Source of the DNA: Balanoglossus misakiensis
Lineage: Eukaryota > Animalia > Hemichordata
Assembly (NCBI GenBank): GCA_040954595.2
Contig: CM082598.2
Location: 2,480,001-2,544,000 of the forward strand
DNA: 64,000 nucleotides
Reading direction: 5' to 3'
The first letter of the stretch is position 1. Each line of letters begins with the position of its first letter. The translations under genes were made by a program, and so were the position numbers. The notes under the pieces are model-generated. The model was not told the DNA's origin. It saw nothing but the letters and a program-made list of their open reading frames with translations, and ran no database searches. This document shows positions 3,970 to 54,589 of this stretch, piece after piece.

Positions 3970-6900
3970 GATGAAAAATATCAAATCATGACAACGCGGG
4001 TTTCACTGCATCAGGTAACTAAATGTTTTGTTCTGTTCACAATTGTCCAATTATTGCTTTATTTCAGTCATTTCAAATTCATTTCAAGTTAGCGCATGTT
4101 TCTTTGACACTGTAATACCCTACAATTCTTTATTGCAGGAATGGAATGATACACGATTGCAATGGAACCCGAATGACTACGACGGATTAACGAAAATTGT
4201 GGTTACCATGGATACCATATGGGCTCCCGATACTGCCTTGTTAAACAGGTAGGATACATATTCAGCATGATTGCCTGTAAGATTTCACAGCGACTCAGGA
4301 AACTACAAATGCCATGAATAAACATGGGCTCACGAGCGTCACAGTCGGAAGACATTCGCTTATGTAGGAAACTCAGTCTCCATTCGTCCTTTCCGGGATA
4401 ATCCATTGATGAAATGCCTCACGGCAATTAGGAAATTACTTTTTTTCATCAATGATTCTGCCTATTCAGAAGTCCCATTTTATTAACTATTTTGAAAGCA
4501 ATTATAAACAAGACAGTGCGATACTTATTCCACAGAAGCATAAAGCGTAGATGGGCAAATAAACGATTCCTATTCAAACCACTAACACTGCTGAATGCCA
4601 TCATCCATAGCAACGATTGTAATGTACAAGAAACGCGTATTATTTGTGTCAAATAATCAAAATAGTTGTGAATTACTGAGTGTTTTTTAAGTCGAGTAAA
4701 GCCATAGTAACATCAACTATTCCTGGTTACTTGTACCATCTACTAATGTCTGACTGCAAATTTTGAATATACTTATACCAACACAAAGAGTTTTAAGACA
4801 TGAGTTTAATGCTGATGACTTTTCATATTATTTTTCACCTTGTTTTAGCGCTGATAATGATTTCGACGGATTTCCACGGATGTTTATTCCGAAACTAACA
4901 ACAGAGATAGGATACCGAGGCCAAGTAATCCAGTCCATCCCTGGAATACTGAGAACTCCATGTACAATGGATATAACCTACTTTCCTGTGGATTCACAAA
5001 ACTGTGATCTACGATTCGGACTCTGGATGTACGTCAACAAACAAGTCCAGCTTATCTTGAAAAGGGAAGACGTACCCAAAGAAAACTTTGTTCGCAACTC
5101 TGAATGGGATATTGTTGCCACGAGAGGGCGTTCGCGCAAGTCGAATTTCCTATTTACGACGCATGAGCCGTACACGGATGTGATATTTGAAATCACTATC
5201 AAAAGGAAACCTTTATATTATGCAGCGAACCTCATAATACCTTGTGTTTTGGTTAATTTTCTGACAGTGGTGGTTTTCTCACTGCCCTCCGACTCATCAG
5301 AGAAAGTGAATTTGAGTATTTCTCTTTTGCTGACCCTCTACGTGTTCAGCTTATTGGTGGCAGAATTGCTGCCTCCAACCTCCAACATGGTGCCTATGCT
5401 GACTGCCTACTTAATATTCAGTATGATGCTAATCGCCGCGTCTGTGTCCATGACAACGCTGGTCGCCATGTTGTGCGAAAATACGGACAGCCGGCGGCAT
5501 GTCCCACACTGGGCGAGAGTGGTCTTCTTTAAGGGGATCGCGCGAGTGTTATTTCTGGACGTTGACAAACAGATGCTCCAGCTATCCAAGCCCAAATCTC
5601 AGGTTATATCTAATCAGCATTGTGAGAAATTCAACAATGTGTACAATGCGCTTCAGGATGAAACCTCGTTCATTTCCGGCGCCCCAAACAATAGAATCAC
5701 CAGAACTATTGGATTGGTTCAGAGCCAAATATCAGCAATACGGACACACTGTAGACGTCATCATATGAAGTCATCATCACTTAGCCAGTCACCCAAGCAA
5801 GGAAAGTTACTTAGTAAGCAACTTCGACGCATGCGTAGTGGTTACACCAATCAATTGGAAATCAAGACAAACCAGATTGCAAAATACATGAGGCTGTTCT
5901 TACGCTACATTGTTCCTAGTGAGAGGAGAATTCAGGTGAGTTGGTCATGTTCCCATTCAACCAAGGCCCTATCCATCAATTAATCAATCAACAAATCAAT
6001 CAATGTACAAATGTACCCATCCATCAATTCACCACCCTTACCTACCTTTCCATACACACCAACCCACCCATCCATCCATCCATCCATCCATCCATCCACA
6101 AATGTATCATATCTATCCATCAATCTATCTAAGCAACAAACCTGAAAGTGGTGGACTGTGCTTTCTGCGACTGTAACTGCATGTGTGTAAGAAGATAGAA
6201 GACCTGCAAATAAAAAAAAATTAATTTTGTTACTATTTGCATTATTTGTAATTTTCTTACTATTTCGCCCCTTGCACTCAATTTCAAGTTTTTGACACTT
6301 GCTACAATTGCAGCTAAATTGACAAAATGACAATGGAAATATTAATTCAATCACGTCACCAATCACAGATGTAAAAATCTAGATTTATATAATTTTGACA
6401 AGTTCATCTCAAGTTGTCATAACCTTACAGGTAGGTCACTTGTTAGTTCAACAACCTCCTCCATTGCATTATATCAGCTGATTAAATTTCACGCACGTTC
6501 CCACAAATAGCCTATTGGTTGGTAAGGTGGAAAATCCTATTTCTTGCCAACTGAATTCTACTTAACAGATGATAGATGGGCCAATTAGATTATAAGTAGC
6601 AAAATGGCCTCATTCGTCAAGGTGTAATTGCGTTTGACGTTAATGTGAGTGATATATTCGACTGATTTATCTGGACACAAGTGAGTCATGCACAAAAGTG
6701 GACTTCTGTCCTGGAAGCAAGAAAAACTATCTTTCTCTTTGCGTATGTTCTTTGCGTAAACCCCTCCATAAAACACGATATATAACACAAGCAGACTACG
6801 ACAGAACGCAAGGATTACCATCTGAAACATCAAAGCCACTAGGATATATCAGACGGACAGATTGTCTGTTTCTTATTGGCCGAAGACCATACATTGTCTA

Positions 6901-8145
6901 CATTCCTAATAGGCAGGAGATCTATTTTTAAAACCACACATGCGAAATTCACATTGTTTACCATTCATATGAAACAGACCATTCCTCTAATGCTCACAAG
7001 TATAGAAGTGTCGTCAATGTGACATAGGCAGTCTGTTAAATGATGGGGCCCTACGAAGCAGTTTGCGTTTAATTACGAGGTGTGGTATTACATACAGATA
7101 TCTGAAAAGTTTAACTTAAATGTACATGGTATAATTGAGAAATTTCTGTTCCCACAAATGTTTATGCAAATATTTACTGGATTATATCTATCATTTGACA
7201 TAATATGAATCGTGCATCTATGATCATACCAAATGGATTTGATATCAAATAAAGAATCACACTAGATTGCACTCGGCGATTAGCGCTCGGTCTGTAAAGA
7301 TGTAAATCTGCGGCCATGCTGGAACTTAATTGGCTATTTTACGGTAAATTTTTTCTGCAGTTATATTTGCCATCCTTTAATGTTCTCTGTGTAAAAGGTT
7401 CGCCGATTGGCAAATGGAACAAACTTGTAATGGCACATAATTGCAGATAAGAGAGTAAGGAATGGGTAGTATTGATCTCTTAATGAACGTCGTTTTTTTA
7501 CCCATGTCATGCGAACAGCCCAAGGCATTTTCAAACTTAACCGAGGCCGAAATGGTTTTCCGTCGATCACTCAGTGAAAGTGAATTTTCATCGCCATGGC
7601 TATGCTGCTTTTATTGCGAAAATAATTTCACAACTTGATTTTAAAAGCCTTGAGTTAGCGGAGACAACTGCTGTTTCATTAAATACATTTCGACTGTAAC
7701 TGCAAATTCACTATCTCTTGGGATTAATAATGGCATCGAAATGAATAAAAAGACTTGTAAAAATGGAAAGTGCACCAGTAGTTCTATAGATATGACAGTA
7801 ACATTTACTCTTCGAGGGAAATCATTCCATAGTCTCAACAATTTTCTTCCATGAATGACTTTTTAAAATGCTGCCGTGTTTTTGAGTCAGTCATACAAAA
7901 CTATAAAATCCATTAAAACTGAAATGCTTGTACAGAGGTGAACTGTTTGCTAAATGTGAGTGCGCAATCTCGATAAGCTTTGGTTGGACATTTCAATTGG
8001 TGTATTTATGATTTGTTTTCCTGTTTGTTTCTAGGTTCAAGAGGAATGGAAGCTGCTGGTTGCAGTCATAGACCGAATGCTTTTGTTGTGCTTTGCTCTA
8101 TCAAGTTCACTGGGAGCTACAATCATGCTCTCTAAAATTACATAG
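3970..8145 (+). CDS. nAChR-like Cys-loop channel subunit A (non-alpha, 5'-truncated)
   Basis: Exons 3970-4014 (DEKYQIMTTRVSLHQ), 4139-4248 (EWNDTRLQW..WAPDTALLN), 4849-5935 (Cys-loop CTMDITYFPVDSQNC, M1-M3, M2 region EKVNLSISLLLTLYVF) and 8035-8145 (M4, TAG). All introns are GT-AG with consistent phases. The signal-peptide exon and exon 2 were not found in 1-3969 and probably lie upstream of the window. Confidence 0.92.
6060..6130. repeat. (CCAT)n-type simple repeat in last intron of gene A
   Basis: ccatccatccatcc runs visible directly. Confidence 0.8.
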
Positions 8146-9179
8146 CCGAGAAGAGATTTCGACTCTAGCGATGCACTTCCGTATTTCTATCCAGCTTTAT
8201 CATCTTGTACGATATAAATAGCAATGTTAACATTTGGTTAACAGTCATCCTCCAAATCGCCCAAACCTAGTGGACATTATGGCATTTGCTGTGGTTTGGA
8301 AGGATGCTAAATCTCACAAGGATAATCCTGGTTTGCTTCAAACTAAAGAAACATACTGATTAATTAGGTAGAGTGTCCATGGCTAAATGTAGAGCAACTT
8401 TAATGTATGATGAAATATTGACTGGTCAAAAGTTTGGTCAGAGTATTACAATTTTAGTTTTATCATAACAATGTTCGTTTGTGTTTGGGATAATTGATAT
8501 TCATATATACAAGTTTTAATTTTCTCTTGCAGTAAAGAGAAACCTTATTATGCAAAATGTTGATATAAGCAATGAATTTACAATGTATCATGAATGTATG
8601 ATGTGAACTTTAAGAGCGTCAAAGAAATTGCAGTGTGTCTTTATTTCCAAACCATTGCTTATATCAGAGAGGGGCAGGTGCTCTAACATGTTCTGGGCAT
8701 ACAACAGCAAAAGATTTATAACCATGTAGTGCAACACACATACCTATTGGGTTTTCTGTTCACATAGTAACTCTTCTTTCAAACGTATAACATTCAGTCA
8801 TAAAGTTCTCACATTTTTTTACTATTTACGTGCCTGTAATATTTTCAACAGCAGAAACGCAGATACATTTGCCTACTGCACCAGATGGTACATATTTACG
8901 GGCAAAATATTCACTAAAGTTGAACTTTTTGTTATTCCCAATTTCAATCATTTTAAGTCAACCTTCATTTCCATGGCCACATATGGATTAATACCGGCAA
9001 CCGAAAAGTGACACAGTTATACACTGCTTTTATAAACCTGATATTTCCCATGAATTAACTTGGTAAATAAATCGATTTCTGGTTTTATCTCAATCAATGA
9101 TGAATTGACCTCATCTCAAAATGCTTTCATATTATTATGCATTTCAATCATGTATCATGAATTATATTATACCAGTATA

Positions 9180-9472
9180 TTGATGGTGTAAATCACGCTA
9201 TTTGATTGGTCGAGACACGACACGTGACCGTGATATATTAGCCATATACCACAGTCATATATCATAGTTACAGAAAATGCCTTTTTAAAATGTTTTATGC
9301 AAAGTTTCAATATACTGGCATAATATAATAGCAATAAAACACCCCCAGCCATGGTATACCACTCGATTTTGACCAGTTCAACTCCATATACGCACTCGCT
9401 ATCGCTCGTGCGTATATGTCGTGAACTGGTCAAAATCTCGTGATATACCATGGCTGGGGGTGTTTTATTGCT
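9180..9472. mobile_element. palindromic non-autonomous element with ~143-bp hairpin (9330-9472)
   Basis: Arm agcaataaaacacccccagccatggtataccactcgattttgaccagttca pairs with tgaactggtcaaaatctcgtgatataccatggctgggggtgttttattgct (3 mismatches). The inner catatacgcac/gtgcgtatatg also pairs. An upstream ttgattggtc..cacgtgacc block may belong to the element. Family assignment is uncertain. Confidence 0.65.
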
Positions 9473-17285: not shown

Positions 17286-20200
17286 ATGGCGACGTATATC
17301 CGGGGGCTATTTCTCCTCCTGCTGCCGATGGTTTCTGACATCACAAGTGAGTATGAAAAACACCAAGTGTGTTTTCACTATCTTTTTGCGGTTTCTGTTA
17401 TTTGGAAATTACTTGCTGAGCAAGGCCACGGTCCTCACTCTTGGAACCCAGCGGCCTTTGCCGGACACAGTTCCGGCGAGAGGGCAGCGTACATGACGCG
17501 TCCACTCGCCGTCTATTCAACTGGTTTACCTTGAGTTCCTCTGAAACAAATTGCTGATGGGAAAACGGCACTGCATGCAACAGTGCATTGGGATTTCAAT
17601 GCTAAATCTTTTATCTCTATAATGGCTTCCGAATGGCCGGCTTTCCAAACCAGGTTCCATGTGATATAGTACACTCTCGCATGACCTTATACTCGGCAAG
17701 GAGACTCCTCATAATTTTCCAAGTATTGCATGTGGTGTTATGCTATAATAGACTAACATAGTTACTCCAAATGAAATACTATCCCATCCTATTCACACCC
17801 CAAGCTTATTATTAGGAGTGAAATGTTTATTTTCCTATTTCATACTCTCTCAATTACGAGATACCTGCTGTCCTGAACGTTGCAATGATATGCCAACAGA
17901 ATATTATCAAACTCTGTAATTACCCAGTCTCCAAATTAGTCATTTATACTTTTTGGCTTGATTATCTACTGGTCAAAGTCCCCCATAGAAAACAGTGATC
18001 AGAAAAGAATAACCCTCTTGTCACATATATTATGTTCAAAGTAATACACCAGGAAGACAAAATAACAGTAATTCTTTTATAATAGAAGTAATTATAATCA
18101 CGAAAATGGAGTGAAATGTCAAAGTCTAGAATTTAAGTTTAAGTTAATCTAACTATACATATGTGCGTAAAAGATATTACAGGTGTAAGTCATGTTGCTT
18201 TTACATTCCTGGATGATATCAGTACGGCAATCACCCCCATCCTTTCCATCGGCATTGACAATCTTACCATTCATCTTCGGGTGAATTGAATCTTAAAGTT
18301 AACGACATCCATCGTATTTAACTTTCAGTTTCTATGTATCATGGCCAGTGGATAATCCATTACACACAGAGATGTATCCACAACCCATTCTCTCACTAGG
18401 TGTCACAGAATCCTCATGAAATTGCACATAGCTTGGATAAAGATCTGTTTCGATAGTATTCAGCATCATTAGCCTTTCTATTTCTAGACTTTGTAGAAGC
18501 ATTACTGACAGCAAATTAGTGTTGCTATTCTTGTGGCGGTCATTAGTAGTTTTCTCGTCAAAGATGCGAACAGCCTATGTGAACCATTAAATCCTTCATT
18601 TGTGATGTTGCACGCACAGTAAAAATCAGTGAGCCCATGCAAAATGTTAGCGAGAGGTCCAACTGAACTGAAATTCCTTGTATCTGGTAATTTATATTAG
18701 TTTTTGATCATTCCCATCCAGATTTTTAAGTTCATTGCAGTCAATGCCCTTTAGGCTTATCTGACATTTGCTGTCTTGACCTTTCTTAAAAGAATGCCTA
18801 TTTCACTACTAAGTATGCGAGTTGATTAGGATTTTTATCATTTCCCTATCGTTGTAAGTAATGTTCAATTTACCCTTGTCAAAATCTTATAAAACTTGGA
18901 CTTTGGGATATATTTACAAGGAAGGCATCATAAAAATCATGACATCCCATGTAAACTTTTTCTTGATCAAATTTCAAATCAAATGGAACCTGTCCATGTC
19001 ACATTAATACATACATTATATATACATACGGTACATACAAACATACACCATCTACACAAGAAACAGTGGCAAACATATTTCATTCTCTGCTTAACATCAC
19101 TGAGGTCATTCACAGTCTGATTTTATGACTACCTTTATTTTACTAGGTGCCTATGTGCCTTCTGCTGAAGATGAATTGATTGCTGAGTTGTTTGCAAGAT
19201 ACTCGAAGTCAACAAGACCTGTGCTGAACACGAACGACTCTGTGTCCGTCAATCTGTATATGGCATTAAATCAACTAATTGACGTCGTAAGTACATCACA
19301 TTCCTGATGACAGTGATTGGTTGTTTATAAATTGGTCTTTTTGTTTATCTCTGCACCTAATCCAGTTACATACAAAGATTGACTTCCTTACTTGGCTAGA
19401 AAACTGCTGCTATGGCAATTAAACAAGTCTCGATCGCGAGATCTCGCAATGAGCGGAAAACCATCTATTTGACCGAATGCATTGACCGACTATATGATTA
19501 CATGTTACATGTACCGTATGCCAATTATACATAAAGTAATAGTTACCCAGCAACTAGTTCTGACACTTCCTTACATTTTCTGTTCTTTTTGTACCACTTA
19601 TTTTACAACCCAATTACAAGCAAACCTTCACCAGACACTACTGTGATTTATTCATACGAAGATTTCCAAACAGGCATATTGCAAAATCATGAATAACAAG
19701 TGACAGCTTTTTCACAATTATCACACACAGCATGTCTATCGTCCGCTAATAGCAGGAGCTACAAGCTGTTTGTTCTATAAAAAGCTCATTTGATTAAAAT
19801 AATTGATACTCCTCTTCTAAACAACTGTATGTATTACAGGGGTGTAGACAAATGTAGTTAATTGTCAAGTCTTTGTAAGGAGCTTTGCCCGTGAGAATTT
19901 GTGCTCAGCATGCAATGTTTGGCGATTCTTAGGGGAATGTTAACCTTCAAATTTTAATGAATATAAATTTTCCGTATTATTGTGATTATATATATCCTTG
20001 CAATTCATGCAGTACAGCTGTTACATTTTGCCTGTAAAATTTTATATCTGGATATCGTTTCTCCGTCTGTCTGTCTGTCGATATTATGCATCTCTGTGTG
20101 GACTTAGTTTATTAGCATTAATAAATTTTGAAAAAATACGTTAGACTCACACAAGATCATTTATTTGATTATAACAGGATGAAAAGAACCAGATCATAAC

Positions 20201-23200
20201 AACCCGAGTCTGGGTTTATCAGGTGAGTTGAAGTAAATTCACGTTTGCAGTCGGTATAAAAAATATATCCAATTTATAACCAATAAATTGGGCATTACAA
20301 TAGATGAATAGAGACCAGGAGCTGTTCCATTTCCCCAGTTAATGTACATTGCAGTAACACCCTTTCTGAATACGTGAAACATGTGTATCATTTTGAGGGT
20401 GGAAGAGCTTGTTGATTTCATTTACACGTTTCAGCTCAATGATGTCATCGGATTGCTGGGAATATTTCGTGATTTGTACATTGAATGTTGTATTCCTTAT
20501 GGAATACTGGCTGTGTCGATCAAAGAAGGTGTTAAATAATTACTTGTTTTATCAGATGTGCAGAACAGGATAGGTTTAAAGCAATTTCTTCTGAATTACC
20601 TTTAGTTTGATGTATGAACATAAACTAAAGAATTCCCCACAAGCTTGCATACGATTGAATAAAATTGACTAGTCCAGCTTAATATAGAAGATATACAGAT
20701 GAAATGTGTATGCAGGCATTCCATTGGTATTATTTCACTCACAACAGAGACAACTTAACATGATAAATTAAATGCAAGATCTGTGTGTTTGTTTCTCCAC
20801 ATGCAATTTTATATCAGAATCATTAAAATGGGAAAATAGTTTAAATTGAAAAACAACGGTTTTAAGTTACTTGGGGGTCACACGAATAGTGTTATTTCTA
20901 AATGCCACAGACTGTTCTGTTAAGTGTTATTACATTTGATTGATGACTGTGCGATGGGGGAATTTGTGTTCGATCACAGACGGTCTGTCTCCGCTCGTTC
21001 TAGCTGTTTGAATGTGATGAGAGAAAAATACATCGTGTATGTTACGTTGATATTTGGCATCTTTTGGTATTCGACAACCAGTGTGTGGTTTTCGTAGGAA
21101 GTCTTCCTTCAGAAGTAGTATTTGGGATGACAATAGAATGTGACACAGCACAGAACAGAGCATCACAACACAACACAACACAAGTCAGTCCATCACTTCA
21201 GAACGATATGGATTTGGAAAAGTCAATATGACATGCCAATTGCACATACATTGAAGTCGGGAGCTCAAGCATGGCTTCCAAAGTAATATGGAACATGGTT
21301 CAAGATAACAGTTTTAACTTTGACGACAGTTCTCGCGGGAAATCAGAAAGAAATTGGATGTGTGTTTGTGTTCTATTGATGTTATAATCCAATAACGTTG
21401 ATGTATCTATCTCTGACATAAAAAGTGAAACGATTAAACTTTACATCGTAAAGTTATATTTCCTTCGAATTTCATGGTCATGTCAAACGATATCCAATCA
21501 GAAATTGTTACATGGCTTAAAGATAACATCCAAAGGAAACAATTAACTAACAAAGTACAGAACTTTGCAGGATATTTTCACATCTAAGCCTGTCACACTC
21601 TTTCAAAAGACACGTAGTGCTATTTTGTAGTCTAAAATTCACATACTTTTGGATCTCCCTAATATTCTGTCATTGCAATATAGTCACACTGACTGACATT
21701 TTTTGTCAATAATCTAGAATTCTCTCAAATGCAAATAAGCAATCCACATTGATGAACTTTTTGTCGGCGACTTATTTTATTAAGTCGTAATGCAGTTTTA
21801 ACGTTCACATGGGAAGAATTGAGAACTAGTATTCACATCGTGACATACCTTGTATTAAAGGGCAGCCTCTCGCGAGGATTCCCTATATTACCCTTCAAGT
21901 GGCACCTTTGATCATCCCGTTTCACGCAAGCGCGTTGGGATTTGTAAGCCAGGCGTGATCAGTGTATAAAGCCTCGAAGTATAGGTGAGCTTTGCAATGA
22001 CAGGAGACATTATAAATTGCGAACAAAGCGACGTGAAAACTGCATCGCAGGGGACGTGATATGCGACGCACATAGATTGAAGTATCGAGTGCTTGTTAGC
22101 AGGTGAATGGCATGATGCTAAGCTTCAGTGTTGGGTGTTGGAAAATCCCGGAAATGTCTTGATTTTCTAGGGCACTTTGTTTCAAGGCGCCTCGGAGCTT
22201 GTAAGCTTCTATAGCAAAAAATGACAATTACGAAAATAATTATTTTTGCCTGAAGATATGTATGAAATTTGTGCATACCAGTACAGTCTATATTATTTCG
22301 GCCTGTATACTTCAACTACATCCTATCCAATCCCCTGAATTCACAAGATGAAAATTTAGTGCGAGTATAATGCATTCTGAAAGTTATATCACAAACCATA
22401 AAGCAAACTACTTCTCGGGCGTACCATTAAACATTACATCAAGGATTGATATATTACCCCTGCCATGGTCATAAAACCTTACCTATACCATGGCATAGCC
22501 ATTAAATTTCACGAGTAAAGTTTAAAGTTGTATAAATCCATAATGCATTATATGTATAATTCTTACCAAACAAAATTCTAAAACCTGCCTTAAACGTCAT
22601 GCATTTTTATTACTGTTAATAGCTGATTTTTAACTGCAGCCGGGGCCAGTTAAAGAATTTAAATTTTGCAATAAACATAAAATACAGCAAAAAATATATT
22701 TCATTCGACTCTTCGAATTCCGTATTTTTTTTTACATTTCTGGTTTCCTCAATGACACCAACATGGTGGGTAACAAACATGCCAACCATCCATAATTGCT
22801 ATGAATATATAACAGATAAAGATTTTGCTGGCAGCAATATCAATATGACAGTTTTTGTGAAACCTAAAAGAGTCAAACAGACACTGGGACAGGAAGTCTA
22901 AAATCAATATACCAATAGACCTTTAAATTTCATACATGAATTCTATTTTTACATTATTTTATTGCCAAATTTTGCATTTCTCACTGGCTTGTTTGTTCTA
23001 TATCCCTCCCTCCCTCCTTCCCTCTCTCACGCAAAAGAAATGTGCGTAACAAAAGAATACATGTGAACATTTAATTTCAGTGCTTTTGTGTTCCAAATAG
23101 AAACTGAGAATGGTGTATATTATGTTAAAGTTTCAGCTGAATTTAATAATAATATATGCCCGAAGCCAACCACAGGGATTCTTTCAGCTTCCGATATTGC

Positions 23201-29200: not shown

Positions 29201-29319
29201 AGATACAGACAGACTGGAAGTTGCTGGCGATGGTCATAGACCGTCTACTTTTGGTGTCATTTACACTGTGTACGCTGTTTGGTGGAGTGACAATTCTGAC
29301 AAAGATAACCACGCATTAG
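17286..29319 (+). CDS. nAChR-like Cys-loop channel subunit B (non-alpha), ~529 aa
   Basis: Exons 17286-17346 (signal peptide MATYIRGLFLLLLPMV), 19147-19286 (AEDELIAELFARYSKSTRPV..QLIDV), 20178-20222 (DEKNQIITTRVWVYQ), 24995-25107, 26671-27784 (Cys-loop CNMDITFFPVDVQTC, M1-M3) and 29203-29319 (M4, TAG). Phases are consistent; it is the closest paralog of A. Confidence 0.95.
23888..24221. mobile_element. MITE with TTAA target duplication (Kolobok-like), 334 bp, in intron 3 of gene B
   Basis: TTAA|AGGGACAAAGTCTCTCTCT ... AGAGAGAGACTTTGTCCCT|TTAA. Imperfect inverted symmetry extends well inside (ttccatttattatgttt / aaacataaataatggaa; acacacaacttc / gaagttgtgtgt). Confidence 0.85.
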
Positions 29320-30241: not shown

Positions 30242-33200
30242 TCAATTTGCAAACAGCCAAATTGTCCACGACAGAAACAACACGAAGAAGATGATCAAAA
30301 GCAATCGGTTGAGAACCGCGCCCACTATTTTCCAGTCTTCTTCCTGTGAAAAGAAATACATAACAAAAATAAATAAGTAAAACCTCAAACTTCCAATGAA
30401 ACAACAAGATGTATGGCATGCTTTTAATCCAGCAGGGAGAGGTTTATATTCACCTTTTCTGATTCAGACCCCTTCGATCGCTGTCGCAATTCTTCAATAA
30501 TCGAGTCCAACCTCTGAAGAATCTGTGAGGACATAAATGCCTCCGTATTGTCCTGTGACGCAGAGTGCTGGTTGTAGAAGTTGTCCGATTCAAAACAGAC
30601 CATTGGAATCTCACTGTCATTGATGTTTTGCCCTGGTCTCTCGTAGTGTCTGTGTTTGATTTGTGGGATTGGGGAAGGTGTACACCCCCGGTAATTGTTG
30701 TGGTTGACATTGTATTTGAGTGGTGACAAGCCCCTGTGCCTCTTGTACTGGTAATTGAAGAATAAATAACGAGGGAGGAAATCTATGAAGACTTTCCGCA
30801 TCCAACCGTTGACCTCGCCTGGCTGGTTATAAGTCTTCATGACCATGGCCGCCAGAATGACGGCGAGGACAACGGATGCCATGTTGACCATCAGGTACAC
30901 CGAAAGCACGGGCATGCTGTCTGACGTCTCGGGCATGATCTCCGCCACCAAGAGGTTGAACACGAAGAGTGTGAGCAGGATGGAGACCGCGAGAGGGAGC
31001 TTGTCTGAGGAATCAGGCGGCAGGTAGAAAACCAAGACTGTGAGGACAGAGAACAGGGCACATGGTAAATTCAGATTCATGATGTAGTAGAGGGGCTTCC
31101 GCTGGATGTTCAACTGGAACTCCAAGAACGCGTACTGTCCGGTGAACGTAAGAAATTCTGCCTCCAATCGCTGATACGAGGAAGAAACAATCTCCCACTC
31201 GGTGTTGGCGATGTAGCCTTCCTTCTTGATGCCCTCGAACGACGAAAAGAAGTCGAGGTCTTCCTTGTAGTGGACCCACGTTCCGAAGTAAATCGGGCAC
31301 GACTGCACATCGAACGGGAACTCAGCGATGGCCATGACGCAGGGAATCTCGTAGATGTGCGCCGTGCACATGGTCACCACGCCATCACTATGGACGATGC
31401 CCGTTGTCGTTATGGCAATAACTTGCGGGAAATTCGGGTGCTCTTCGTTGGCACTGATGAAACAACAGAACACGTGATCAGTATATTTCCTTATTAAGTA
31501 TAATTATCGCCAATTAACAACCGTAACTGAGGTGCACTGCAGTTGAAGATACATGTACACTGCAGCCAGTTTTTATTTGAACCATGGGGATGGTATTTCT
31601 TGATGATATCTCTTGCAGAAACACAAGCCTCTTTACGGCTATAAAGTTACTATTTGTTAGCTTAATTGTCTGTATTAAAAGTTCCTGATCCAAGAAGCGC
31701 TTTCCTTATGATTCAAACTGCTCTACTAATATGTAGTCCCAACAGACTACTACTAGTAGATAGATAGACAGATACTTGCCTTTGGTAGAGGGCGGTGTCT
31801 GGAAACCAAATCTCCTTAGCAATAACCGGTAAGTTAAAAATACCACTGTATTCCGATGGGTCCCATTTCAGACGATAATCAGTCCAAATCTATGTACGAA
31901 ATACAAATTAGGATGTATTGTATATACAATAAGCACATGCACTCGTAACATGGTATTGTAACGGCAGTACATGGATGTAATGTCATACAGAGGTCATGAA
32001 ATTGGCCTATTAAACATGATTCCCAGAGACGGGTATTGATTCTTAAGGTCATTGCGGTGGGATTGTATTACATATGAGAGCATTGACATTGAGAATCCAT
32101 GTTCGCTCGAATCCAACACTGGGGAGAATTCTGTCGCCAGTTGACCTTGTAAGTTTGCTGGTAGAATCATATATGGTACGGTCAACCTTGGAAACTGCTG
32201 GTGCTGGCGAACTACATTAAATATAGTTCAATGCAGGTTTATTTTTAAATTATAATACTTATCAGTTTCCATACCTGGTAGATCCAGAGACTTGCTTTCA
32301 TTACCTGTGCCTTTTCGTCCTGAAAAAGACACACACTGTTAGTGTGCCAATGGTCAATTGTGGTCGTTAGTACACTCAAAAGACCAGATGTTTCTTCAAC
32401 TTCTGGTTGGCATAGGCTAACCAGGTCGGTTTTAGCGAGCAATGTTGTCAGAGAGACCCTCTGAGTGTTTCCATACATTGAATCGTTTCATGGTTAGACA
32501 GGGAGGGGGGGGGTTAAAGGGCGATCATGTTAACTATTCGTAGAAAGTCGGTCGCTGCTCCCCGTTCCACGGTCACAACACTTTGCCCACACGTCTGATT
32601 CTCAGCAGTCGATGCCAAAGACCTTTGGACCCTTGCAACGCCTGCTGATCACGCTAATTTTAAATTTATGGAACGACAGATTGATGACTGGTCGGAATTA
32701 GCATACCGAGGTTGAAACATCTGTCACCATTCGTAAGGGACCATACTTGAGGGTTTTATCAACCATGCGATAAAAGTACAAGGGAGATCTAACAACCAAG
32801 ATACCTACCACATCAAGAATTTGTGTAATAGCCAGCACGATATCAATCGTCACGGCCTCGCCGGGGGTTTCTGCGGGTCTCACACTCTTGCTGTAGTTAC
32901 TGAACAAGTCTGTCCGTAGGCGTTCTTCCGCCTCACTTGCTGTGACACCTATACGAGGGAGATTGAACGGCGAAGACACAGGGAGAGAGAGACAGAGAGA
33001 GATAGAGAGTGAGAGATAGATAGAGAGTGAGAGAGAGAGAGAGACAGAGAGAGGGAGAGAGAGTGGATAGACAGAGAGAGAGTAAATCAATCAAAACTTT
33101 CCAGCACTATCTTTCCATGGTGACTGTTAAAAACTACACTTGATGTATATGTAGATACAAAATCTCCCTGTTCATATATAAATCTCAGAAATTAAATGGC

Positions 33201-36200
33201 GATGATTCAAAGGATTGTGTTGGATCCGGATTGTGTTTCTATGGTAATTCCATTATGTAACTGTGGTCTGATATTGAAATATTTTCAATGAATTGTACCC
33301 TGTTGTAAGATTTACGTTCTGTTTCTCAGAGAACTCTGGTAGCAACGGCGGTTGTTCATAACAGGCAATCAATCAACTGAAGTGCACTAACATGCAGATA
33401 AACCCTACACTTGTTGCTCAAGTACTGGAATTGTCATGGTTCTGACAGTAATGGCTCCAAACACAAACATTATTGCTGATGGACGGTCGCACTTAACCAA
33501 AAACAATGTCCAGCATTGTCCTTGTACTGCAAGTGAACTACGTCGAATTACGCATCAATTATGGTCCAGGTTTAAGGAACGCAAACAGGGGTCACAATTC
33601 GGGGTTAGTGTAAAGCATTAGGATACTCTATCATTAAATTACAAAGAGTATATATGACAATGAACCCCGATTAAAAACTACAGTCGAATAGAAGCTGATT
33701 TATATTTTCCTTGAATTCCAATGACAGCTCTGTATGGACAGAAGATCTGGAAATATCTCAACGTACATTATAGCAGAAAAAAAGTAACAGCCGGTGTATG
33801 TGTGTTTAAGTGATAATTTATGTTCCCCTGAAGTGTGATAGTGCTATAAAATATTAATCCACTTTGATCAATAGTAGCATATGTTTCTATGTCAGAAATA
33901 ATAAATACCTGTGTTCTCCGAAACTAAGTAGTAGTTATTTACCTTTGATATAGTGACTGTGACTTGTTTTATCTGTCTGTCTGTCTGCCTGCCTGTCTGT
34001 ATGTCTGTCTGCTTATGCTGTTGCCTGCATTCTTTATACCTTCGCCCATTTCACATACTCTTTGTAATGTCGTCATCATCACAGACACATGGCCAGTTCA
34101 CACTCAGTTGATAATTTATTGGCCCAATCATTGTACTGGAATCCCCAAACCATTAGTGGTCCGCACATTTTAAAGGCATTAGTGTTCCACACCTTTTGTG
34201 ACTGTAATTATTCACTTATATCCATAAAATATCAGCATTGTGTACGCAGTTAACAATTGTATGATTGATGCTAATTATCCAGTTGACACAAATGTGGCAG
34301 ATTCCGTAAACAAAGAATAAACTCGGCCATGATACCACCAACGCCTGTACAGCTGACAAAGCCTGAACCGTGTGTTGTATTGTTGTTTCTTTATATTGTA
34401 AGCGTACCTGCCCTACAATAGCTCAATGGAGTTAAAAAGGCTCAAAATATATCGACTTTACTTACAATGACATCAGGTATTGGCTCTTCTGCTGCCTGTT
34501 TTTTAATCAATCATATAAATTGTTTCTACGTTCATAGAAAATCAGACATAACACAAATATCATAATCACTATCCAACACACGCAAACTGAGTTCAGCAAA
34601 TATGACTTCAAACACTAAATTAGAAATAATTGGACATCTCGACAGTAGATGAAACTCATTTTGCCAACTGGTGAACTCGGATGATATTACAGTCACATTC
34701 CTCTGTTACACGTACAAGCTTCTGGACAAGAGTTAATATATCAATACCGACCATTGATATTATTAATAACGTAAGCTAACATTTGCGGGTACGTAAATAT
34801 AGGAAACAAATGGCATGTTTGACAACTTCTGATCTCAGCATACACAGCAGGGGTAAACGTCAAGGTGTGACAAAATCCATTTACATGTGTGCTTGCATAT
34901 GTGCGTTTGGAATTGTAAATATAATGTGCAGAGGATGTGAACAACAACAACAAAATAAGCATTGCATAAGATTGCGCTGCATGGGGTAAATAGGGTAAAT
35001 AGGCAAGCTTTGGAATATCAGCGAGATTGAATTTAAAGTATTTCTGATTCGTCTTGATCAAATGTTTCAGCCATATTACCGCCATGCCTATCTTTCGTCA
35101 TCTACGTCATTAGTATGTCTTATGTCCCAGCTAGTGAGTATAATTACATTTATTTCCATTCGCTAAATAACGGATTCGGCATTTATGGCAGTTTCAACAA
35201 CTAGTCCCTGACAACTGCGACATTATTAACACATGTGTGGTGCTAGGAATCTGTCCAAAAATGCAATAGATATTTAATTCTAAAAATAAATTATAAAAGT
35301 TCATACTCCTAATAATCGAAGGTCTAAACAGCGCTGTGAACAGATGTTAGCTGACGAACATATTCGATAACTATAACTAGTCCGGGAAGAAGTAGAAATC
35401 TCTCACAGTAGGGAGAAAGTTGATGAGTTTTTGCGAAGGAATTCGCTATGGCTAACCTACACAAATACATAAGCATAAGCTTAAGGATGAGAACAGTGGC
35501 ACCGATCCAAAATACTGGTAGTTGTGATGGTCTACCTCGAAACCTCGTTTTTGGACAGCCGATTATGCATGGCAAACATAGTATTGCACAGACAAAAAGT
35601 TCCAAGATCTGTCGAAGTTCGACAGGCATATTGAACTTGCTCATCAGACATAAATTAACTTCATAGTATTTTGAGAATAAAATGTCCTACTTAATAAACT
35701 ATTTCTGGTATTTTACCAGCGACAGCTGAAGTGTACATGTTGTGCGTTACACGCATAGGACACAGATGTGTCATTTATGAACAGACGACACGTCAAAAAC
35801 CTTTTCTAGTGACAGATGGGGTATTTCCACCGATGTTCATATGTGTAGAATTCTACAGTTGATTTATGACCAGGCAGATAATCGTGCCGCCCTAACAATG
35901 AAGCAAATTGACCTCTCTAATGTCAATTCATCATTTTGTTTGCTTGTTTGTTCAATATTTTGATGTTGATAATTTCCATGTACCTTCGTGTGTGTTTACA
36001 AGTTTGCCACATCCAGTCAAGGTCGTGGGGATATCAAACACTGTCAAACGTGAGGGGGTGCAACACCTGCAGATATTTAACGACTAAACGGTAAATGATA
36101 CTTCATTCTGTCATTTGTGGTCGTACACACAAATAGATAGAATCGTCAGCTTACAACGTGACTTCTTTGAACGGATGTCGCCAGATCTGTATAAACATGG

Positions 36201-37477
36201 TGGTAATGAAACATTTGTTCTCGATTTTCGTTTACTTATATGTGGGGCATTCTTCCTCTAAAATGTAAAGTATCATTGTATAAACACTGACCGTGCTCTG
36301 TAAGTGCAATCGATGAACCACAGAGGGACAGCAGATGAACATATACCATTACAGACGGTAAATATCAAAATCACAATAAATAAAATACCTAACATGCTTT
36401 TAGTAACACAAGTTTACAGAATACTCTTATACTGTGCGGAAAAGAACCACGATTCACCACCTAAACATCACGTGTTCTAAGTTTTATTTGATTTACCTTT
36501 CATATCACTTTCACTCATAAATTTTACATAGAGCTTTGTCTTGAATTATGTCTCCCTTTGGGTGGGGCTTATTGTTGTTAACATAGTTCCATAAATAAAG
36601 TACAACAGCATTTAAATAGATGAAGTGACAGTGTGGGCGACTCGGTGAGAGTATTTAGACAGAAATATCCTGCTGAGAGCAAGCAATCGTTCATTGACAC
36701 GGGAAATATCACGTTTCAGTATTGGATGCTAACCGCGCTTACGCAAAAAATAGGGCTGAGTGATTCAAGGTTTTAGTTAATGCAAAACATCGGTTGCTGC
36801 CGGTTTTACACTCCGGGTGAAACAAGAACACCCGTAAGTGTAAGAAATACTGTACTTACTGACAGGGACACTGGGAAAAGTCATTGAAAATATGTAGGGT
36901 GCCAAAGATCTACCGACAGGGCAGATGGAACTAAGACGTTTAAATATATGTGTGATAGACAGAAACCTTGTGCTTGCTGAGAATGTAACTCCAAATGAAG
37001 TTCATAGGAGTTAAATCAATCACATGGTGTCACATGACTGGTCACATCTCACATCAAAAACATCCGTATCATAAAGACGTTTATATCATAAAGACATCAA
37101 ACTATGCTGAAAGATTCTCGCTGTTCCATCTGTAATTTTACATCCCGACCACTACTACTTCAATCTAGACAAATGGGTTCTAGTGCATGTGTTGAAGACT
37201 ATTGATAGACACATAAAAAGACGGTTCATCCGTAGATACAATGTTATTAAAGGCTTGACAAGAGATATTCTATTTCGGACACATGTCACAACAAGTCGAT
37301 CATTAACAATCGGAGAATTACGTTATTACTGGGGGCATAACCACGCTTATGCGAAAAACGTGCAATTTAAGCTTCACAAAACGACACCGGTAGATCGAGA
37401 CCCTTACCTTTGGAGTTAAGCAACAGTACCAGTAGACACGAGGCCGCGAGAAAGGCAACAGTACGAACTGGCAACAT
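30242..37477 (-). CDS. nAChR-like Cys-loop channel subunit C (non-alpha), ~488 aa
   Basis: Exons 37477-37408 (MLPVRTVAFLAASCLLVLLLNSK), 32948-32809 (EAEERLRTDLFSNYSKSVRP), 32319-32275 (DEKAQVMKASLWIYQ), 31889-31780 (followed by a GC donor), 31453-30454 (Cys-loop CVMAIAEFPFDVQSC, M1-M3) and 30343-30242 (M4, TGA). Confidence 0.95.
32980..33082. repeat. (GA)n-rich simple repeat next to the exon 2 acceptor of gene C
   Basis: gagagagaca/gatagaga runs; pyrimidine-rich on the minus strand. Confidence 0.85.
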
Positions 37478-40400: not shown

Positions 40401-40597
40401 AGTTATTTTATTAAATTGCCATTTTATAGAAAAAATGAAAATAATGTTACTGAAAAATGGAAAAAAATCAAAACACGTTTCATGTTAAAACCACACCTAA
40501 ATTAAGGCAGATGGTGCAGCCAATTTTCATGGCATGTTAGTTGGCCAAAAGTTTTGTTCAAAGAAAGTAATGCCGGTACACAATGTCCAAGCTTAGT

Positions 40598-43500
40598 TTA
40601 GTTTAAAAACAACCATGTCGTGCTTATTAAAAATAACATGAAGAATACAATCAATAAAAGTCTATTAAGAACCGACGCAACAATTTTCCAGTCTTCTTCC
40701 TGGAAAATAATTAACAATAAAAGTAACGTAAGTTGTGTGATATGTATACAAAGTTTCAATTGTCATTATAAGTGGTATCATATATCAAACAATGGTGCAG
40801 AAACCAGGAACAATTATTGCATGCTACCAGCAAAGAAGATATGCACATGGTGAGTATTTATTATTCACGAATACCTGCTCTTCTGAATCGTCTGAAGGTC
40901 GTCGCAATTCTTCAATGATCGAATCCAGTCTCTCCAAGACTTGCAGTGACGAGAAAGCGAGTGAACTGGCTTGGAATTCAGGTGAGAGTATGTCTGCTGT
41001 GTCGTCTGTCTCAAAGTCGGTGATTAATTGGTCGGCTTTAAACATGTTGAACAGATGTTCTTCGTATGCATAATTCCTGTCTCTGAGTAGTTCTGTTCGA
41101 GTAGGTATGAACTCTGTGGTCGATCTTGGGGGTTTGGTGTGTTGGTGGTTGTAAGATCGCCTGGAGACACGGTTTTTATTGTGCCAATTGAAAAACAGAT
41201 ACTTTGGGAGGAAGATGATGAATACTCCTCGCATTTTGCCACGAACTTCGCCTTTGTATTTGTCGATTTTCATTACAACCGCCGACAGGATAATAGCGAG
41301 GACAACAGACGCCATATTGACCATCAGATACAAGGTGAGTACGGGCATGCTGTCTGACGTCTCAGGCATTATTTCCGCCACCAAGAGGTTGAACACGAAG
41401 AGTGTGAGCAGGATGGAGACCGCGAGAGGGAGCTTGTCCGAGGAATCAGGTGGCAGGTAGAAAACCAAGACGGTGAGAAGGGAGAACAAGGCGCATGGGT
41501 AGTTCAGGTTGACGACGTAATAGAGTGGTTTTCGCCGTATTGACAGGATGAACTCCAAGTAGGTGTATTGGCCAGGGTATGTGAGGAACTGCCCTTCGAA
41601 CCTTTGGTACGTCGAGGCAATAATGTCCCACTCAGTGTTCGGTATGAAGCTCTCCTTTTTGATTCTCCCAAACGATGACCCCATGTCGAGGTCTTCCTTG
41701 TAGTGGACCCACGTCCCGAAGTACATCGGGCACGTTTGCACATCGAACGGGAACTCAGCGATAGCCATGACGCAGGGAATCTCGTAGATGTGCGCCGTGC
41801 AGACGGTGACAGTGCCGTTGCTGTGAAGAATGCCAATGTTTGAAGGATCGATGACTTGTGGGAAGTTGGGATGTTCTTCGCTGGCACTGAAACACAATGG
41901 AGAGTGATGGCTTTGGTGAGAATGGAGGACCAACGCAAAACGAGACAAAGGAATGTGTACATCGGTGGAATCAGTTGCAGGTATGATGTGAAATACTATC
42001 ACAGAAAATATTGCCCACTCTGGCAATGTGACTGTTTTCAGTACTATTGCTATAATACTGTACTGCACTGTCTCTCTGTCTCTGTCTGTCTGTCTGTCTG
42101 TCTCTCTCTGTGTCTCTGTCTCTGTCTCTGTCTCTCTCTCTGTCTCTCTCTCTCTCTCTCTCAACATACAACTTACCTCTGGTAGAGGGAGGTATCAGGG
42201 AACCATATATCCTCTGTCTTTATTGGCAGATGGCTGATACCATAGTACTTAGATGGGTCCCATTGGAGTCGATAGTCTTTCCAGGTCTATCATAACATAA
42301 GGTGATACAAATTACTCCCTAGATCTTGTAATATACTACTAGTTCCACAGGTGGCAACTGATAAACAATTACACAGTGTCCGATTCAAGTTAAATCATTG
42401 TGAACTGAGTTTATAAGACGGAATGCTTACCTGGTAGACCCAGATACTCGCTTTAATCACTTGGGCTTTTTCATCCTAGTATAACAAACAACAATACCGT
42501 AACGACATTTGAGAAGCTACTTGAAGCAGAGTTCTCAAAGATGAAAGTATGCAGCATCATGTCCAGCTCTGCAAATTACTCAAGATAAAATTATGTCGAC
42601 ACCAGTGTGACGCATATTTTTAAAGTTTTTGACAGGCTATACATTTACATCACAGCAATCGAAACCTGTCATAATATAATCAGACTATTAGGTTTCATAT
42701 GGAAGTTACATTAAAGGGTGGGTGTCGTTCCGTCTGCGGCTGCGTGTATGGGTCCCATGCATACTACCACACGTTTGCTTGCAAGTCAAGTAGGCGCAGG
42801 AGTAATGATACTAACCACATCAAGGAGTTGTGTGATCGCCAGATCAACGTCAATGTTCACAGTTTCACCAGGTGATTTAGCTGGTCTCACGCGAGCCATG
42901 TACCCAGTGAACAAGTCCTTGCGCAGACGGCCTTCCGCGTCACTAGCAGCGACACCTACAGTCATTTATTAGAGAGGAACGGCACAAAAGTGACGTCAGA
43001 AAATTTTCACGTGGCCACGCAGAAAACTTGCCATACGCCCACCCGACCATGTAATAATGAGTAGTATATCCATATTGCTGTCGGCTATATAACATTTCTA
43101 CTCTGAATAAACACACAGAGTAATCCTATCCAAAATTTAGTCATCCTTGAACTATTCGTTCATTGGAGTTTAATATGTTTTAATAGGCTTGCATAACTGA
43201 ACCAGCGTGATTTCAGCGAATTTGGCCTACATTTTGTCGTCTGGCGATTTTGCGAGAACCAGTGCAAACCGGTTCTGCTGGACAAAGTTTTTACTCTGTT
43301 GTGGGAGTTTGGTTTGATACCCACAATCGTTTCATGGTCAAAACTTACCTTTAACTTTAGAATGCACTTTTAAACAATGTTTATATTTTTGGCATCAGAA
43401 ATATTGAGGCGCCCGTTTGTGCTTAAAACCCGGGTTAGTTTCTGACCTCTATGATGTCATCTATAGGAATTTAATTTTACATGTACATACGAAATGTAGC

Positions 43501-43794
43501 CAGCAATGCAGATAATATACAGCTCGATTACGAATTAAATCAAAGTTGATTAAAAAATATTTTTGGACAAGTGATAGACCTTTTGATATCCATTGAAGGG
43601 TGTTTTGGATATATGAAGGAAACATGGTTAAGAAGATTAATTTACTTTTCTTTTTAGCGAAAGCAGAAAAGTTTGGTTTGTTTATAAATGTCTGCGTGGC
43701 GTTCTAGTCAAACGAACTCACCTTTTAAACTTATTACAAGAGCCAGCGAACAGAAGACAGCAATAATAGCTAGCAGTCTTGTTGGCAACGTCAT
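40598..43794 (-). CDS. nAChR-like Cys-loop channel subunit D (non-alpha), ~493 aa
   Basis: Exons 43794-43722 (MTLPTRLLAIIAVFCSLALVISLK), 42955-42816, 42475-42431 (DEKAQVIKASIWVYQ), 42286-42177, 41886-40875 (Cys-loop CVMAIAEFPFDVQTC, M1-M3) and 40699-40598 (M4, TAA). It is a close paralog of C. Confidence 0.95.
42070..42162. repeat. (CT)/(CTGT)n simple repeat in intron 4 of gene D
   Basis: tctctgtctctgtc runs; source of the spurious RERET N-terminus of ORF 40824..42167. Confidence 0.9.
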
Positions 43795-44789
<995 letters not shown>

Positions 44790-47503
44790 ATGATGCATAA
44801 CCACCATATATTCATCTTCTTCATTCTGGTGGTCTGCAAACAAAGTAAGTTTAAAATAACGTTGCCGCGGTACAATACACAGAACCCTTTTCGTTTCTAT
44901 GCCAGTGACAGATATATTGTTTTATTCTATTTTGGATATAGATCACACGTTTGTTTGATACACAGATGTCATAATCATAGTTGAAATGTTTTTGTATGTA
45001 TGTAAGTCTATTGATAAGCCTACAGAAGAAGGGCTGTTGCGAGATATGACAATGTGGGCATGACAGATGTACCATTTGAAATTAATATGTTGGATGTTCT
45101 CGTGCAAACGTGTGCATGTATCATTTTCTCAGTTTGGTAAATGCGACCAGCATATAAAAACCATTGTTTCCATTCATGGCAACCTTGTCAGGTTTCTATG
45201 GATAGAAACAACGGCTTCTGAAAACTGTTTTGGGAGAAAGAAGGTTTTTCTAACACCATTCTTCCCCATAGCTAATGTAACACCAAGTATTTGAAATGAA
45301 ATCCAAAAATCAAACCTAAGCGAACGAAATCAAACAAAATTGCACTTGGGATAATTGATTGCTCGGACGTTGAAAGCATTCTTGCCAACCAAACAGTTGC
45401 TAATAGTTATTTTATCGGGGTGTACCTAGACATAAATATTTACAGATAATTTCTCTGCGTCACTGAAAGAGTCCATTAACACAAGCATTTTTGTACTGAC
45501 AAGCCTGAGTCGACAACCTGTCTATAACTGCCAGTGAAGAGACTTTCCTAAATTGACCTTTACAGGTAAGGGAGAACATGTCATGGTCGTGCAGGGCCTG
45601 AACGTAACGGGAGTACAAGCAGAAGAAACGCTTAGACACAAGCTCTTCTCTACGTATGACAGAACAGTGCGGCCATCAAACGATAGCAAAACACCAGTAG
45701 TCGTCAATGTTGCACTGTCACTCACGCAGTTGCTTGATGTTGTGAGTATTACGCATGTTTTGCGAATATTTCACGGCGTATGAATGAATCCTAATGCTTG
45801 TTAGTTGTATCACAAAGGTCAGGATGTGACGAGGATAGTATCAGAAACTATAGTATAACGCCCTCGTCGGCAAATCTACAAGTACCGAAACCATTCGAAA
45901 TCTTCCACTAATATCCGTATTCTTTTTTTGTTCTGAAACAGGATGAAAAACGACAAGTTGTCACGTTAAGCACGTGGTTATATCAGGTAATTTTCACACT
46001 GCGAGTGTGTTGTGAGTGACGGTTAATTAGCTTTACTATACTAAGCTTACTACTGCAATTAAGAAGTCGGTATTATCATAGCGTCTCGTGTACTTGTGTA
46101 TAAATCGTTAATCCAGCTAAAACCTATCTTTTCAGATTTGGCAGGATTATCGACTTGAATGGGATCCGGATGATCATTCGGCGATTAAATCATTGGCAGC
46201 TCCTGCCAGCGAACTGTGGTACCCAGATACGGCTCTGTATACAAGGTATTTGTGTGAAAATATAACATGTACAATCTATGGGCAGTTTACATGTGATGTG
46301 TATGGATCTTTGTTTTCTGCTGCGAAACCCGTAAGTTATGTATTGTAGGCCATTTTGCTTGACTATTTGCATATCACGTGACCACGCTGCGTGTATTTCT
46401 TTCCTCGCAGTGCTAGCGAAGAACATGATAATTTTCCCAAAGTGATTACAGACACAACGACAACGCTGATACGCTTCGACGGTAACGTCACCGCCTGCTC
46501 CGCCCACATCTACATAATCCCGTGCAAGATGGATATTGTGAACTTTCCCTTCGACAGACAGTCGTGCGACATGACAATCGGCACCTGGGTGTACAACGTG
46601 ACCCAGCTCGACTACAAGCCTATGTTTGACACCATTCAGTACGAAGGCTTCATACGCAACACAGAGTGGAGTCTCACCGGCTCCGCTGTTGCCAGGCACA
46701 CGGCAGACTTTATTGTTTTCTCGGGGACATACGCGTACATGTCCTTTACCGTTTTCATGGAGCGCAAACCCCTCTACTATATTGTCAACCTAATTTTGCC
46801 ATGCGCTCTTTTCTCTCTTCTCTCGGTCGCTGTCTTTCTCCTACCGCCCAACTCAAACGACCGCATCAACATGGGCGTGTCCATTTTACTGACACTGTTT
46901 GTTTTTAATTTACTTGTAGCTGACATCATGCCCCCGACTTCTGAAAATGTCCCAGCGCTATCTCTCTACCTGCTATTTAATATGGCGAGCATTGTGGGAG
47001 TTGTCGTCATTTCCGCTTTTCTCATCTCTCTATACGGACGGCGAGGTAAGATTCCACATTGTGCGGAACGTGTCTTTTTGGACATGCTAGCTAAAGTCGT
47101 TTGTCTGGACAAGAAGGTCAATGCCAGTCGAGCTGGTCGCGGTAAAGTTTTGCCGTCGACATTTAACGGAATATCCAGGTCCGCCATATTGGTTGCGCCG
47201 TTCGAGCCGGAAAGCCCTGAAAATGAAAACGAGGCAATCGAGACGCGCGCGCAGTTCCGTTGCAAGTGCGGCGAGGGACCCGAAAAGCTTAAGGCGATGG
47301 AGAAGGCATTAATGATGCAAAATGCTCGCTTTCTTCGTGACGTTGTGCGAAAATTGGAAGAAGTGGTTGATTTGCAACGGCAACTTAACTTCAACGAAGG
47401 CGCGGAGGAATGGCAAACGCTTGCACTGGTCATTAACAGAATCGTGTTTATTTTGTTCCTCATTATGTACATAAGTGGCACCGTATTCATTTTTCTCATG
47501 TAA
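44790..47503 (+). CDS. nAChR-like Cys-loop channel subunit E (non-alpha), ~492 aa
   Basis: Exons 44790-44844 (MMHNHHIFIFFILVVCKQ), 45566-45741 (QAEETLRHKLFSTYDRTVRP..QLLDV), 45942-45986 (DEKRQVVTLSTWLYQ), 46136-46245 and 46411-47503 (Cys-loop CKMDIVNFPFDRQSC, M1-M4 in one exon, TAA). Confidence 0.93.

Positions 47504-54503: not shown

Positions 54504-54589
<86 letters not shown>

Follow-up and report, generated by a model that had tools for sequence, protein, structure and literature searches.

Expansions of nicotinic acetylcholine receptor (nAChR) genes whose products lack the vicinal cysteine pair of loop C are already known in molluscs and annelids. The cephalopod chemotactile receptors CRT1 and CRB1 are described as lineage-restricted nAChR derivatives in which the canonical acetylcholine (ACh) motifs are missing (PMC11526382, PMC10338036); Alpo4 of Alvinella is reported to lack the cysteine pair while keeping the binding aromatics, and is an orphan with respect to its ligand (PMC10338036); and the bivalve nAChR expansions form tandem arrays, with only 33 of 132 oyster genes being of the alpha type (PMC6896357). 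In nematodes, DEG-3/DES-2 and ACR-23 are aromatic-box nAChR-like cation channels that prefer another amine over ACh, and DEG-3/DES-2 is described as heteromeric and proposed to be chemosensory (PMC8747062, PMC11377560). Here we analyze a stretch of 64,000 nucleotides from the acorn worm Balanoglossus misakiensis (contig CM082598.2, positions 2,480,001 to 2,544,000; hereafter the window), in which five nAChR-like genes, denoted A to E, lie together and the cysteine pair is absent from all five, as an earlier reading of this DNA from sequence alone had reported.

With the vertebrate CHRNA2-6/CHRNB2-4 subunits, the acorn-worm genes share the exon layout (PMC6354393), the clustering and a cation-type M2 helix, and the best PDB matches of the B and C orthologs are alpha4 (9e-79) and alpha6 (3e-73), respectively. 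Unlike these heteromeric subunits, they combine the absence of the cysteine pair with Phe190, a five-residue insertion and a remodelled loop E, and their clade is separate from both the alphas and the betas. The parallel with cephalopod chemotactile receptors drawn in the sequence-only reading holds for the loss of the cysteine pair but is weakened by the pocket, which is diversifying there and conserved here; moreover, the modelled E ortholog (P0001) has a structural identity of 23% to octopus CRT1 and 18% to squid CRB1 as against 32% to beta2 and alpha7 (Z 21-25 throughout). Our trees were built from sequences none of which is named as a chemotactile receptor. Alpo4 and the bivalve genes are lophotrochozoan, often intron-poor and lineage-specific, in contrast to the deuterostome, intron-bearing and one-to-one conserved genes described here. 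The nematode DEG-3 group, in which betaine or choline is preferred and which may serve both signalling and chemosensation, appears to be the best functional analogy. It is, however, nematode-specific, and its matches to the E exon (2e-33 to 4e-28) rank below those of vertebrate alpha and beta chains (5e-43); furthermore, ACR-23 is described as using a loop C Cys and Tyr that are missing from the acorn-worm genes (PMC11377560). The value of 5e-43, which is the best PDB match of the E exon taken alone, leaves no concern about chance resemblance.

Origin and conservation of the acorn-worm clade

An unfiltered HMMER search with the E ortholog retrieved 14,680 proteins at E<=0.001, the best 150 of which were used. 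A FastTree tree was computed for 197 rows (192 domains and five window exons), and an IQ-TREE tree, which agrees with it, for 84 rows hand-picked from the same set, one of them added afterwards. The trees are unrooted; for the window genes they include exon 5 only, and what is said of full-length proteins draws on the orthologs. All five window genes fall, with A/B and C/D/E as subgroups, inside a clade of 32 rows (support 100/99), bearing out the common origin proposed earlier, and the cysteine pair is found in none of the 32. The 26 species-labelled rows all come from Ptychodera, Glandiceps or Saccoglossus, five further rows being the window exons, and at least eight distinct subunit types without the pair can be told apart (A, B, C, E, F, G, H and x21). 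A profile search with 22 clade members at E<=1e-40 gave, among the matches listed, 14 proteins, 11 of them from enteropneusts and three distant (24-27%). No ortholog outside enteropneusts was detected among the best 150 representatives, with echinoderm and pterobranch genomes not searched directly, and the clade is likely restricted to acorn worms.

Several lines of evidence bear on the source of this clade. Its sister group (94/95) consists of 16 rows, 10 of them species-labelled and all of these enteropneust, and the cysteine pair is present in 8 of the 15 rows checked; the next row outward is the Ptychodera flava protein P0042, which has a complete ACh site. The approximately unbiased (AU) test rejects the joining of the clade to beta subunits (p=0.005); it was devised after the tree was seen and used a quick tree of 42 rows, including 12 from the clade and four beta-like ones, three of which were assigned from motif and tree position, not from name. 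The alpha7/alpha9-like rows are split by a 100/99 branch from the enteropneust clade and the heteromeric rows. Taken together, the pair-bearing enteropneust sister rows, the position of P0042 and the rejection of the beta grouping place the descent of the clade, as judged from these trees, on the alpha side of the heteromeric nAChR branch. The earlier suggestion of an altered pocket in descendants of alpha-type subunits is upheld, and the genes do not appear to be orthologs of widely conserved non-alpha subunits, given that the orthologs detected are all from enteropneusts and the beta grouping is rejected.

A second group without the cysteine pair (P0022, P0040, P0075, P0087, P0092 and P0126) is nested among pair-bearing enteropneust subunits in the sister clade, and P0022, P0028 and P0040 carry the consecutive Glandiceps accessions XP_077992173-175, which suggests that another cluster exists and that the pair was lost there independently.

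A, B, C and E each have one ortholog in Ptychodera, Glandiceps and Saccoglossus (IQ-TREE group supports of 100/98 to 100/100), whose lineages split at least 370 million years ago. The window exons are sister to P. flava in every ortholog group, and the P. flava orthologs are 85-92% identical to the window genes over the ectodomain. The best matches of gene E are in P. flava (72%), Glandiceps talaboti (56%) and Saccoglossus kowalevskii (55%); these species account for five of its nine matches, the other four lying at 26-30%, and for nine of the 11 matches of gene B, one other being a weak nematode match. Only D is an extra copy: it groups with window C and P. flava C (100/97), and no separate D was found in P. 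flava, Glandiceps or Saccoglossus among the tree rows, which derive from the search matches. Judging by the ratio of nonsynonymous to synonymous substitution rates (0.13 in the ectodomain and 0.14 in M1-M3), the C/D pair is under purifying selection. A 184-residue Saccoglossus protein (P0169, XP_006811720), in the same 90% cluster as Saccoglossus C and with a nearby accession, is possibly a second C copy or a fragment.

Within each of the three species, the orthologs of A, B, C and E lie on a contig of the same size (53,098,162; 15,961,026; 508,528). Gene order in these relatives was deduced from accession numbers only: it reads E, C, B, A, G, G, F in P. flava, which agrees with the window, and F, A, B, E, C, H in Saccoglossus, where the cluster accessions are consecutive (XP_006811724-728, 730). 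Other orthologs have accessions within XP_070580384-620. Two clade members in Glandiceps are on other contigs, and F, G, H and others, present in the three genomes, are not in the window. The sequence-only description of the cluster as locally expanded therefore has to be abandoned, since one-to-one orthologs of four of the five genes occur in three genera of acorn worms, in all of whose genomes the cluster runs on past these genes; the family is both older and wider than had been supposed.

Pocket, fold and pore

The loop C strings (NFLFTTHEPY in A, VFSATPDRY in B, EFLTFTGQY in C, QFLTYPGQY in D and DFIVFSGTY in E) are exactly those reported earlier. Pocket positions are given in muscle-alpha numbering, anchored on an alpha3-like database row, to which the exon 5 ectodomains are 21-29% identical. 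The Cys-loop, the loop B Trp149 and Tyr198 are present in all five genes, and Phe replaces Tyr190 in all five. Loop C is of full, alpha-like length, with 31 residues between the anchors (32 in A) as in the alpha7-like reference and against 28 in the beta2-like reference, so that with Phe190 retained it differs from the short beta-type loop without an aromatic at 190. C, D and E also keep Trp55 and Tyr93, carry a hydrophobic loop C tip in place of the cysteine pair and have lost Lys145 and Asp200; polar residues at 145, 152 and 200 are replaced. In A and B, as the sequence-only reading did not mention, the loop A Tyr93 is replaced by Leu. At the loop D Trp55 position, Trp is present in the three named orthologs of gene A, but the window gene has Ser, encoded by TCA (4003-4005), which differs from TGG at two bases; this could reflect relaxation of gene A in this species.

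Three motifs proposed earlier as shared and derived need qualification. The segment after loop A is present, although with the spacing S-A-x6-F-P instead of x5, and is part of a five-residue insertion (26 versus 21 residues) that is rich in Asp and Glu and contains His in C, D, E and most B. In loop E, the Trp and one or both Pro of W-x-P-P are gone, as stated, but A and B retain the second Pro; Cys119 is invariant in C/D/E and His122 occurs in eight of nine. The Pro before the Cys-loop is present too, but it is also found in the pair-bearing relative P0042 and hence is older than the loss of the pair.

The derived pocket is well conserved. Phe190 is found in all of A to G, and in C and E the tip of loop C does not vary between genera. 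If a site is called derived where the P. flava ortholog departs from each of three canonical alpha references, 43 of 51 derived pocket sites are the same in all three genera (A 9/11, B 8/10, C 9/10, E 9/9, F 8/11) as against 245 of 511 other derived ectodomain sites, an odds ratio of 5.8; the 15 pocket positions were picked from family knowledge after the pocket table was seen, and sites are not independent of one another, so that the nominal p overstates the case. Accordingly, the orthologs show a pocket more conserved than the background and not a diversifying one, the comparison of selection between paralogs covering C versus D.

The proteins display the hallmarks of nAChR-like subunits, namely a Cys-x13-Cys loop, four transmembrane helices and the pentameric ligand-gated ion channel (pLGIC) fold. 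The model of P0001 (predicted local distance difference test, pLDDT, 74.6) is that of an ordinary pLGIC subunit, matching beta2, alpha1 and alpha7 at Z 24-25, with the insertion (residues 119-128) below a pLDDT of 50. Prediction of a complex of two P. flava C ectodomains gave an uninformative score of 0.01, and the ESM Atlas returned generic ligand-binding-domain clusters only. Cation channels of this family are marked by an acidic residue at M2 -1', no Pro insertion and a hydrophobic 13' residue. The window genes have all three features, with Glu at -1' in A and B, Asp in C, D and E, and Val13' throughout, so that the pore is probably selective for cations. Position 2' is occupied in C and D by Pro, which is unusual.

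Possible ligands and roles

We tentatively favor, with a confidence that falls a little short of even, the proposal that these genes encode heteromeric cation channels for one conserved amine-type ligand other than ACh. Under this proposal, ancient clustered nicotinic-type subunits without the cysteine pair would co-assemble into cation-selective pentamers opened by a small amine or quaternary-ammonium compound, predicted to be other than high-affinity ACh. C, D and E would supply the principal face, with Tyr93, Trp149, Phe190 and Tyr198, whereas A and B, lacking Tyr93, would be partner subunits or form a second type of site; the clustering and the existence of subgroups with and without Tyr93 suggest such heteromers. 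The amine of the ligand would sit in the aromatic box and its bulkier or more hydrophobic part beneath the new loop C tip, and binding would open the pore and depolarize the cell, the ligand being either an internal transmitter or an external metabolite. That the derived pocket has stayed fixed for more than 370 million years suggests a single, stable ligand, and the retained aromatic box suggests an amine. The Cys pair, the 190 hydroxyl and the 145/200 pair are known from mutagenesis to matter for high-affinity ACh binding, and their joint loss argues for a shift away from it; a literature search for data on Y190F found no paper combining all terms. There are precedents: in ACR-23, betaine is reported to be caged by the same five-residue aromatic box (PMC11377560), and gating by betaine or choline (PMC8747062) and by dopamine (10.1101/2025.04.02.646353) has been described for channels of the nAChR family.

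Several observations weigh against this proposal. Alpo4, which likewise lacks the cysteine pair and keeps the box, is reported to respond to none of the ligands tested (PMC10338036), and vertebrate beta3, alpha-derived and without the pair, is described as accessory only (PMC6354393). The beta2-like reference also has Trp55, Tyr93, Trp149 and Tyr198, so that these four aromatics are by themselves no proof of a working principal face, and the case for such a face would rest on Phe190, the length of loop C and the conservation of its tip. The excess of pocket conservation is not significant in A (p=0.14) or B (p=0.07) taken singly, position 198 is Cys in Saccoglossus A and position 55 is Ser in window A, and the pocket sites are not independent, several of them lying in strands that may be constrained for folding.

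The precedent of beta3 leads to a different possibility, somewhat unlikely in our estimate, that the genes encode accessory or complementary subunits of ordinary ACh-gated receptors, alongside pair-bearing acorn-worm alphas of the P0042 type. Although beta3 falls in the tree where an alpha subunit would, it has no cysteine pair, and alpha5 and beta3 are described as filling the accessory position only (PMC6354393); the loop D Trp is present in all named orthologs, pair-bearing relatives exist in the same genomes, and strong one-to-one conservation would suit a core neural role. However, at least eight types without the pair appear many for such a role, the principal-face loop C tip is invariant in C and E with Phe190 in all of A to G, and the loss of the Trp and one or both Pro from loop E indicates that the complementary face was remodelled too. 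As a lead on expression, the Schizocardium marker 'acha6' (neural cluster 34, PMC13554239) was considered and left unused: the C and E orthologs are annotated as alpha-6-like, but the visible start of its probe, translated by eye, mismatches the loop D region of C and E. Further nAChR-like genes appear in the same marker table, for which no sequences are given (PMC13554239). A look-up of RNA records with the E exon listed none, which has no bearing on expression.

An external ligand is central to the idea of convergent, cephalopod-like contact chemoreceptors that sense poorly soluble molecules in the proboscis or epidermis, which we consider unlikely. The loss of the pair, the hydrophobic loop C tips of C/D/E, the replacement of polar residues at 145, 152 and 200, the clustering and lineage restriction of the genes, and the presence of additional divergent paralogs and of the second group without the pair, which makes up 7 of the 15 rows checked in the sister clade, are all in its favor, as is the life of acorn worms, which are burrowing deposit feeders with a mucus rich in halogenated aromatics. 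The mostly retained aromatic box for a cation, and a pocket conserved where that of the octopus is diversifying, speak against it. Framed as acorn worms' own ionotropic receptors for compounds of sediment, food or conspecific mucus, derived from heteromeric-type alpha nAChRs, a chemosensory role would be a deuterostome parallel to the octopus receptors, in an ordered cluster fixed for more than 370 million years; in this form we regard it as somewhat unlikely. Gating or strong modulation by protons or metal ions, through the acidic, His-containing insertion and the loop E Cys/His of C and E, seems very unlikely. The composition of the insertion, the invariant Cys119 and the nearly invariant His122 would suit it, but acidic vestibule rings are reported in ordinary cation channels too, ACR-23 among them (PMC11377560), confidence in the modelled insertion is low, and the conserved loop C tip would be left unexplained.

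Gene models, flanking sequence and wider meaning

Six-frame translation of the window identified large nAChR-like exons at 4754-5983(+), 26585-27964(+), 30424-31503(-), 40824-42194(-) and 46382-47503(+). Smaller exons were located by tblastn with homologs, and splice ends and phase were then verified by coordinate: all boundaries so checked have AG/GT ends and compatible phases, the sole exception being a GC donor of gene C exon 4 (31779-31778, minus strand), where the other four genes have GT. The first exons of C, D and E are the top candidates from a simple hydrophobicity scan, a control run of which recovered exon 1 of B.

Table 1. Nicotinic-type genes, their exons and other features of the window.
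Feature	Position	Strand	Remarks
Gene A	3970..8145	+	5'-incomplete in window; ortholog of P0013/P0014/P0015
Gene A exon	3970-4014	+	loop D; Ser at Trp55 position
Gene A exon	4139-4248	+	loop A
Gene A exon	4849-5935	+	loop E to cytoplasmic loop
Gene A exon	8035-8145	+	M4, stop
Gene B	17286..29319	+	ortholog of P0010/P0012/P0165
Gene B exons	17286-17346, 19147-19286, 20178-20222, 24995-25107, 26671-27784, 29203-29319	+	first: signal peptide
Gene C	30242..37477	-	ortholog of P0005/P0004/P0168
Gene C exons	37477-37408, 32948-32812, 32319-32275, 31889-31780, 31453-30454, 30343-30242	-	first: candidate signal exon; fourth: GC donor
Gene D	40598..43794	-	extra copy of C
Gene D exons	43794-43722, 42955-42816, 42475-42431, 42286-42177, 41886-40875, 40699-40598	-	first: candidate signal exon
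Gene E	44790..47503	+	ortholog of P0001/P0002/P0003
Gene E exons	44790-44844, 45566-45741, 45942-45986, 46136-46245, 46411-47503	+	first: candidate signal exon; no intron before M4
Kinase-like gene	51399-55228	+	Thr-rich mucin-like stalk (51399-52280), hydrophobic segment (52574-52861), tyrosine-kinase-like exons (weak PF07714 matches)
Tandem repeat	59428-60088		AT-rich; 117-base unit, 5.6 copies, 91% matches
Membrane protein gene	60831-63910	-	LDL-receptor class B repeats, uromodulin-like D8C domain

Genes A to D follow a six-exon plan in which exon 5 is very large and M4 is preceded by an intron, as is described for the CHRNA2-6/CHRNB2-5 group (PMC6354393); E is without this last intron. The first position of gene A in the window is the start of its exon 3; exon 2 was not found in positions 1-3969 and probably lies to the left of the window. 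D and E are arranged head-to-head with candidate start codons about 1 kb apart, which fits shared regulation. Hidden genes were looked for in ten open reading frames, picked by eye between a point ahead of A and one shortly beyond E; none had a credible Pfam match, and one match is an AG-repeat artefact. Open frames, valid splice sites, the close P. flava orthologs and purifying selection on C/D rule out a pseudogene or artefact reading.

Beyond gene E, the kinase-like gene has the catalytic loop HGDICSLS and DIG at the DFG position, features by which it may be a receptor pseudokinase. The membrane protein gene is likely the 3' part of a gene that enters from the right edge of the window.

In literature searches on hemichordate nicotinic receptors, in which subscription journals are thinly covered, no description of a clade without the cysteine pair was found, and such derivatives are apparently undescribed in hemichordates; a preprint on octopus DopC1 includes Saccoglossus in its Cys-loop tree, where proteins of the clade may appear unnamed (10.1101/2025.04.02.646353). 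According to comparative work, bivalves have enlarged nAChR repertoires and deuterostomes reduced ones (PMC6896357). The present analysis indicates that an invertebrate deuterostome lineage holds a sizeable, old and orphan clade whose pocket was rebuilt and then conserved, and with A, B, C, E, F, G and H, ligands could be screened on a small and well-delimited set of subunits from animals already established in the laboratory. If a new ligand were found, hemichordates would gain another fast transmitter in their nervous system, or else a third independent route from nAChRs to chemosensation would be on record.

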